A stretch of 64,000 nt of DNA from the NCBI RefSeq assembly GCF_000027125.1, contig NC_017626.1; one strand, written 5' to 3'. Below the pieces are notes generated by a model that saw only the letters and a list, made by a program, of their open reading frames with translations, was not told the origin of the DNA and ran no database searches. Below are positions 45,570 to 46,644 of the stretch, in pieces (position 1 is the stretch's first letter; each line of letters opens with the position of its first letter). The translations under genes were made by a program, and so were the position numbers. This DNA comes from Escherichia coli 042. GTDB lineage: Bacteria > Pseudomonadota > Gammaproteobacteria > Enterobacterales > Enterobacteriaceae.

Positions 45570-45670
45570 AAACGCACCTTAATCTGCGAACAAAAAAAAG
45601 AATCATCACCGACACCCACGACGTTATATCGTGGATGTCGCTTTATTCAGAAATAAAAAAACTGAAGTGG

Positions 45671-45913
45671 TCAACAAAAACTGGCCACCGCGTTAGAGTT
45701 TTTCCAGTATCGATTTTCCGATTCGTTTGGGGGTAACCCACCGTTATATTCGTGCGGTCTTAGTGCGCTGTAATATCCAACGATATAGTCCGTTATGGCG
45801 TGAGCTGCCTCGCTGAAGCTTACGTAACCCACCACCGGCATCCATTCGTTCTTCAGACTCCTGAAGAAGCGTTCCATTGGGCTGTTATCCCAGCAGTTTC
45901 CGCGCCGGCTCAT
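45671..45913 (-). pseudogene. IS3-family transposase OrfB C-terminal fragment
   Basis: 80-aa fragment ...[22 protein letters not shown]...[20 protein letters not shown] matches the conserved C-terminus of IS3-family (IS2-like) transposases; no upstream integrase core, so truncated. Confidence 0.6.
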
Positions 45914-46644
45914 ACTCTGCGTGATCTGGTATCCGCGGCCTGAAGAGATAAAGGCGATAATAAAACAGACATCAGTGTCAGTGACAGCAAGGACGGACAG
46001 CGCCGGAATAAGCTTTGTTCCTCAGCCCTCTCGTTCCTGCAACATAATTTTCCAGTCAAACGAAAAACCTTTTATTCATGTCATACCAACAATCACCAGC
46101 CTCCTGACGATACCTCCCACCATGTTTTGCGATGGCACGCTACCGCCCTTCCGGTATTTACCCGCATCAACTGGTACCAGAATGCTGAGCAATAAATCTG
46201 CCAATTTTTAGCTGACTTATTTTTGATCATTATAGAATAATGATCTGAACTACAGCAATATGACAGATTTATCGATCGATATAACACAAATGAACAGTTC
46301 TTTATTCTGTCATATATCGCAAAAACAGCACATTGCAAAATTTATAACCATAATTAATGGAAAAGTGCAGAAAATTATTCCACTGAATGCTCAGTTGGTT
46401 AGCTAAAAAAATAGCAATTTTTGATTTCAGTCATTGAAAATTGCAATGCATGACGATTCAACAGCATTTAAGTGAGTTTCAGGATATGGGAAGGACATGA
46501 AAGGAGGAGCGCAATAAAATATACAGGAAGAAGGGGAAAATGTTTCGTAAAAACAGAAAATTAACAGCGCACATCAGGAAACGCAGTCTCCTGATTCAGT
46601 GCTACCACATGAAAATTTAGTTAACTGTTACCGTACTAAAATTT

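Follow-up and report, generated by a model that had tools for sequence, protein, structure and literature searches.

How did the tail end of a transposase gene come to stand alone beside a helicase gene in a tRNA-Phe genomic island of Escherichia coli 042, and which of the rearrangements of that island does it record? The element in question is IS911, a member of the IS3 group of the IS3 family first described in Shigella dysenteriae, which is about 1.25 kb long, has 36-bp inverted repeats and carries orfA and orfB, in the 0 and −1 frames, with a programmed frameshift that yields OrfAB. The modules of the GI-pheV islands of this species have been described as separated by insertion sequences (ISs), to which deletions have been attributed (PLoS Genet 2024, PMC11537424). 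Here we analysed a 64,000-nucleotide stretch of strain 042 DNA (the window) together with 5426 complete E. coli genomes.

Results and discussion

A fragment of IS911

A full-length IS911 copy of 1248 bp (L002:2501-3748, IS911 by PGAP annotation) was aligned to the window by blastn, which gave a single HSP of 271 bp at 99.26% nucleotide identity (two mismatches in 271) at positions 45663 to 45933; no other IS911 DNA, neither IRL nor orfA, was found in the 64 kb, so that 22% of the element is left. The features of the locus are listed below by window position, with the strand in brackets (a dot where none applies).

42582..42714 (−): 3' fragment of a ShlB-like gene of the island backbone, aligned by blastn to L007:13027-13159; its frame-2 translation matches the C-terminal part of the protein
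43782..45569 (−): intact NERD and UvrD-like helicase gene, the left-hand module (Pfam NERD, UvrD-helicase and UvrD_C; PADLOC)
45570..45662 (−): native 93-bp spacer upstream of the NERD-UvrD helicase gene, aligned with the IS-free loci L005 and L006
45663..45933 (−): IS911 right-end remnant, nucleotides 978-1248 of the 1248-bp full copy counted from the IRL tip
45663..45698 (−): right terminal inverted repeat (IRR), 36 bp, intact, with its TG tip at 45663
45671..45931 (−): orfB' pseudogene, the last 86 codons and stop of the IS911 transposase, enclosing an 80-aa ORF
45931..45933 (.): truncation junction, 3 bp (ATC) common to IS911 and the ShlB-like gene, a putative deletion-crossover microhomology
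45931..45972 (−): 5' tip, the first 14 codons, of the same ShlB/FhaC/HecB-like (POTRA) gene, fused to the broken IS911
46131..46148 (.): homologous-recombination crossover between the window-type (microcin) and grp-type islands, from the SNP map of the window against L009 and L004

In ISfinder practice, copies that share at least 90% nucleotide identity are isoforms of one element, and the remnant reaches 99.26% over its 271 bp. A megablast search of the 5426 genomes returned matches to this stretch in thousands of ISs. Among them, the copies with the PGAP name 'IS3-like element IS911 family transposase' were 97.8-99.3% identical to it, and ISEc52-type copies, including those of K-12 that PGAP names IS911-like, belong to the same family and align over the same orfB region but at about 92-94%. 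With IS911 proper at 97.8-100% and ISEc52 well below that, IS911 and not ISEc52 is the source of the remnant. The other IS911 copies to which it is 99-100% identical are both full-length and truncated.

The IRR provides a second line of evidence. Positions 45663-45698 share 35 of 36 bases with the published IRRa oligonucleotide TGAAGTGGTCAACAAAAACTGGCCACCGAGTTAGAG (PMC2909936, Table 1), are identical to the IRR of the full copy in L002 and end in the 5'-TG of the 36-bp IS911 repeat; with the IRL absent, one end of two is present. The name IS911 is thus based on the PGAP names of 99.3%-identical full copies and on the published IRR sequence (PMC2909936), and the initial annotation of this DNA, which had proposed an IS3-family OrfB remnant, is borne out and narrowed to a particular element.

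The leftover reading frame (45671..45913, − strand) encodes 80 amino acids from an internal ATG at 45913. Its product passes the gathering score of Pfam rve_3 (E=1.7e-9), the Pfam matches (rve_3 and rve_2) being to the C-terminal part only. It also matches the NCBIfam model transpos_IS3 at positions 305-368 of 369 (E=1.5e-19), the extreme C-terminus of an IS3-family transposase, with a score of 70.5 that lies below the cut-off of 160, as expected of a fragment. In-frame homology to the transposase continues for six codons upstream of the ATG, to 45931; the initial annotation had reported about 80 C-terminal codons, which describes the ORF correctly, but the homology actually covers 86 codons plus the stop.

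The same annotation had stated that no DDE core remains. Both D motifs of the full copy (WCGDVTY and FHSDQGS) indeed lie upstream of the break and are lost, so that a complete DD(35)E core (rve domain) is absent, but the catalytic E and the downstream K are kept in orfB'. On the basis of established knowledge of the IS3 family, we take these two motifs and the retained E motif to be the DDE triad. Nor does the window contain orfA, the orfA/orfB frameshift region or the 5' two-thirds of orfB; the earlier observation that no OrfA lies upstream was confirmed, the DNA to the right of 45933 being homologous to IS-free backbone in other genomes. In sum, the remnant is like IS911 in its 99.3% nucleotide identity over the remaining 271 bp, its IRR and its OrfB C-terminus, and unlike it in having no IRL, orfA, frameshift site, D-D of the triad or visible target duplication, and it is not a functional member. 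Since it has one end and no transposase, the scar is unable to transpose.

Public annotation agrees with this picture. In locus L001, which is 100% identical to window positions 43000-49500, PGAP flags the orfB' stretch as a pseudogene ('integrase core domain-containing protein, incomplete, missing N-terminus'). In strain 19KM1803 (L009), codon 8 of the leftover ORF has changed from TGG to TGA, which PGAP reports as an 'internal stop'. Because of this nonsense mutation and the pseudogene flag, we consider that the leftover ORF is not maintained by selection. No function is supported for the fragment, and we infer that it has none. Judged from its sequence, it appears to be an inert 271-bp right end of IS911 consisting of the IRR and the last 86 codons of orfB; as a fragment it is ordinary, public genomes already list it as a pseudogene, and it is no new biology.

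Two edges of different kinds

The IS911 insertion point lies after ...AAAAAAAC (45662), and the IRR tip at 45663 follows ...AAATAAAAAAAC. The distance from the insertion point to the helicase gene downstream is 93 bp for the longest ORF (start 45569) and 135 bp for the start chosen by PGAP; the helicase gene matches the PADLOC model C3a187 'NERD+UvrD' (E=4.5e-140). Three independent relatives without the IS, GPEC102 (L005), FMU073332 (L006) and S19-141, have a NERD-UvrD helicase gene that is 93-94% identical to this one, and their homology to the window ends at 45660, two bases short of the IRR tip. Past this point they run on as AGAATCATTAAC... through a 235-bp spacer to a GIY-YIG nuclease gene that matches PD-Lambda-1 defence models. 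Since homology breaks at the IS terminus, within the ambiguity of an A-run, the left junction was in all likelihood made by transposition, with AAC at 45660-45662 as the presumed left copy of the target duplication, which in the IS3 family is 3-4 bp long, only one IS end having survived.

In the IS-free relatives (L005:6763-8007 and L006:6765-8009) the helicase gene lies directly downstream of the GIY-YIG gene, a neighbour that has probably been deleted in the window. To the right of the GIY-YIG gene these two relatives differ from one another, with contact-dependent inhibition (CDI) remnants in GPEC102 and type VI secretion system (T6SS) remnants in FMU073332.

The right edge is of another nature. 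The IS911 match breaks off within orfB, at 45933, which means that the transposase did not create this edge. Backbone homology begins at 45930-45931 in CFT073 (L004, 94.6%) and in strain 12089 (L007, 95.0%), both of which are IS-free there, and a three-way alignment of IS911, the window and CFT073 displays the ATC overlap. The gene used for comparison is the 348-aa ShlB-like gene of strain 12089 (L007:12993-14039), which has no pseudogene flags. In the window, a block at 42715-45930 stands in place of 838 bp of this gene and contains an ImpA-N fragment, a frameshifted hypothetical gene, the NERD-UvrD helicase gene and the IS911 remnant. In GPEC102, which lacks IS911, the block shares the left edge at 42582 and runs several kb further to the right, which indicates that a larger block was present here before any trimming. 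The shared edge, and the 3' fragment of the ShlB-like gene in the same orientation as the 5' tip, are what trimming of the window version from its right side would leave.

At 42041-43716 (− strand), a degraded T6SS cluster made up of a VasL-domain ORF, the ImpA-N fragment and the frameshifted hypothetical gene is interleaved with the ShlB-like fragments; at this site, relatives keep tssB/C/K/E remnants or CDI (VENN) remnants.

These positions support the initial proposal that the remnant marks a module boundary, since homology to the IS-free relatives on the left ends at 45660 and backbone homology on the right starts at 45931. Taken as a whole the initial interpretation is supported, but the proposal that the junction was IS-mediated needs a correction: it fits the left side, which is an IS terminus laid down by transposition, but not the right side, which is an internal break with 3 bp of microhomology.

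Occurrence in other genomes

We searched the 5426 genomes with 400 bp across the left junction, 400 bp across the right junction and 701 bp across both, at a coverage of at least 80%. Each query was found in exactly 357 genomes, and the set for the whole region is contained in both junction sets, which makes all three sets identical and argues for a single origin of the event. No intermediate with a full-length IS911 at the site was recovered by the separate left- and right-junction queries in the 5426 genomes. In the same collection, 1009 genomes have the 5' region of the helicase gene and 1081 the right-hand backbone, and sequence resembling the remnant (IS911 and ISEc52-like relatives) occurs in about 4000, often in several copies.

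The remnant is therefore a landmark of one tRNA-Phe island lineage, present in 357 of the 5426 genomes. The junction is inherited and not particular to one strain, and islands with both of its edges sit at pheV and at pheU and differ in their right-hand cargo.

Origin of the scar

The locus very probably arose in two steps, the insertion of IS911 followed by a deletion that did not involve transposase, with an inert right-end scar as the outcome. A complete IS911 would have transposed into the spacer between the GIY-YIG (PD-Lambda-1-like) nuclease gene and the NERD-UvrD helicase gene, within a degraded T6SS and two-partner-secretion region of a tRNA-Phe genomic island. A later illegitimate deletion would have removed IS911 nucleotides 1-977, comprising the IRL, orfA and most of orfB, along with neighbouring DNA that probably included the GIY-YIG gene and whatever lay beyond it, leaving the broken IS fused to the backbone ShlB-like gene at codon 14 through the 3-bp ATC microhomology. 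A 3-bp overlap is expected by chance in about 1/64 junctions and is no proof of a mechanism. The scar may then have been passively inherited or moved along with the island.

That the fragment is IS911, where its two junctions lie, that they occur together and that its ORF is decaying was observed directly; what the deleted DNA contained and in which order the two steps took place is deduced, the latter since no genome in the collection keeps a full-length IS911 at the site. If the content is as proposed, the remnant records the loss of a PD-Lambda-1-like nuclease gene from beside the NERD-UvrD helicase gene. The junction had also been called old, which holds in a relative sense only: other IS911 copies still match the fragment at 99-100%, and for that reason its sequence gives no independent estimate of age.

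Other routes to the same arrangement can be envisaged. Homologous recombination between two IS911 copies, one adjacent to the helicase gene and one already truncated in the ShlB-like gene, could have deleted the intervening DNA. Such an event would be in keeping with the abundance of IS911 in E. coli, with similar sequence in about 4000 of 5426 genomes, with the deletions attributed to flanking ISs between GI-pheV modules (PMC11537424) and with a solo 39-bp scar resembling the IRL of IS911 in the homologous island of CFT073. However, the right junction (IS911 nucleotide 978 to ShlB codon 14) never occurs without the left in the 5426 genomes, nor the left without the right, all counts being 357, and the truncation of the second copy would still have to be explained; we regard this route as unlikely. 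Still less probable is that a fragment truncated before the arrival of the ImpA-N/NERD-helicase block was recombined into the ShlB-like gene, with 45933 as the junction of the block insertion. The block at 42715-45930 is flanked by pieces of a single ShlB-like gene, as an insertion with target deletion would be, yet in GPEC102 the block has the same left edge, no IS911 and a right edge several kb further away. In that genome an IS3-family element lies 4 kb to the right; it was considered as the donor for an IS911-mediated adjacent deletion and was rejected, as it is not IS911.

A different set of possibilities grants the scar a present-day role. The IRR of IS911 has an outward-facing −35 element, TTGACC, that is used in the circle-junction promoter, and the IRR is also the binding site of OrfAB. 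In the remnant the TTGACC is directed at the helicase gene 93 bp away, and the junction has been kept in 357 genomes, so the IRR might conceivably have been co-opted as an outward promoter or regulatory element for that gene, or the 80-aa ORF as a functional peptide. Retention of the junction is, however, accounted for by common descent, and the consensus scan found no promoter-like site on the helicase (−) strand around the IRR. As read from the sequence, no acceptable −10 stands 16-18 nt from the TTGACC, a 17-nt spacer giving TCTGAA, which agrees with TATAAT at 3 of 6 positions. Around the IRR the terminator search returned only weak hairpins at 45607-45640, at or below chance expectation, and the Rfam search of the window gave nothing near the remnant. 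With the stop codon in L009-type islands and the pseudogene annotation also counting against a functional peptide, co-option is the least credible of the readings considered here. Hardly more plausible is that the scar is a live hotspot for IS911-targeted insertion or RecA-mediated rearrangement next to the candidate anti-phage helicase gene, with its IRR bound in trans by OrfAB from full-length IS911 copies elsewhere in the genome or its 271 bp serving as homology to those copies, and with the outward −35 able to modulate the gene; neither binding nor recombination of this kind is likely. Insertion followed by non-transposase deletion remains the preferred history.

The surrounding island

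The left end of the island is marked by tRNA-Phe (27125-27200; pheV, on the yqgA side) and a P4-like integrase gene, at 27125-28663 of the window. The common form of the island is that of strain 19KM1803, which matches window positions 27077-47720 at 98.5% and then continues, like CFT073, into a grp microcompartment cluster. This island is located at pheU, next to dicD/dsbD, and its integrase region is only 94.6% identical to the window. Synteny of the window with L009 and CFT073 stops at 47720, inside a 219-aa ORF (47218-47877).

Between about 29500 and 46147 the window is near-identical to L009, and this range takes in both IS911 junctions with a further 214 bp on their right. The SNP map contains no differences between the two at 45934-46147; from 46148 onward L009 has the CFT073 alleles, about 4% divergent. 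As the crossover maps to 46131-46148, the cargo was swapped by homologous recombination in backbone DNA and not at the IS scar. One kilobase of the shared range, 40000-41000, is more divergent, with 49 differences inside the ibrA (PAPS reductase-like) gene, and its near-identical surroundings suggest a small recombination tract.

The remnant had originally been placed between the helicase module and the genes that lead to the microcin cluster, and we considered it as the boundary that brought this cluster in. That reading was rejected: recombination crossed over some 200 bp further right, synteny breaks at 47720, and the linkage is a separate and rare one, the range from ibr to mchB (38231-57000) being covered at 80% or more in only 4 of the 5426 genomes. 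The scar is common to islands that have different cargo and sit at two tRNA sites, and in L009 the leftover ORF has acquired a stop codon, which suggests that the scar predates the cargo exchange. It could be used as a marker to follow this island from one tRNA site to the other (pheV, pheU) and across its two cargo types (grp microcompartment or microcin H47).

Like the published GI-pheV islands (PMC11537424), the island in the window is a mosaic at pheV with a P4-like integrase and with modules (ibr, helicase, T6SS remnants) delimited by IS elements or scars. It is unlike them in that one edge of its scar is a non-IS microhomology junction and in that cargo exchange (grp versus microcin) took place about 200 bp from the IS.

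Several other features of the island and its surroundings were recorded. The homologous island of CFT073 has a second IS911 scar, independent of the first: a lone 39-bp stretch at L004:6617-6655 that matches the IRL end at 92% and has a KAP-family NTPase gene on one side and a frameshifted gene on the other. Beside the integrase gene of the window (28982-31439, − strand) are genes for a sulfatase-fold protein and an outer-membrane beta-barrel protein; the former is annotated by PGAP in L009 as a phosphoethanolamine transferase and has a Pfam EptA/B N-terminal match below the gathering score. Further into the island, at 32011-37835 (+ strand), a cluster of genes encodes a TerB-N/TerB-C protein, a BrxC/D-like ATPase and a DEAD/DEAH helicase, which match PADLOC SngA, SngB and SngC of the Shango anti-phage system (E=1e-100 to 1e-278). 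In the core-chromosome part of the window, Rfam naRNA4 (CssrE) was matched at 15229-15299 (− strand) with 60.9 bits against a gathering score of 59.5.
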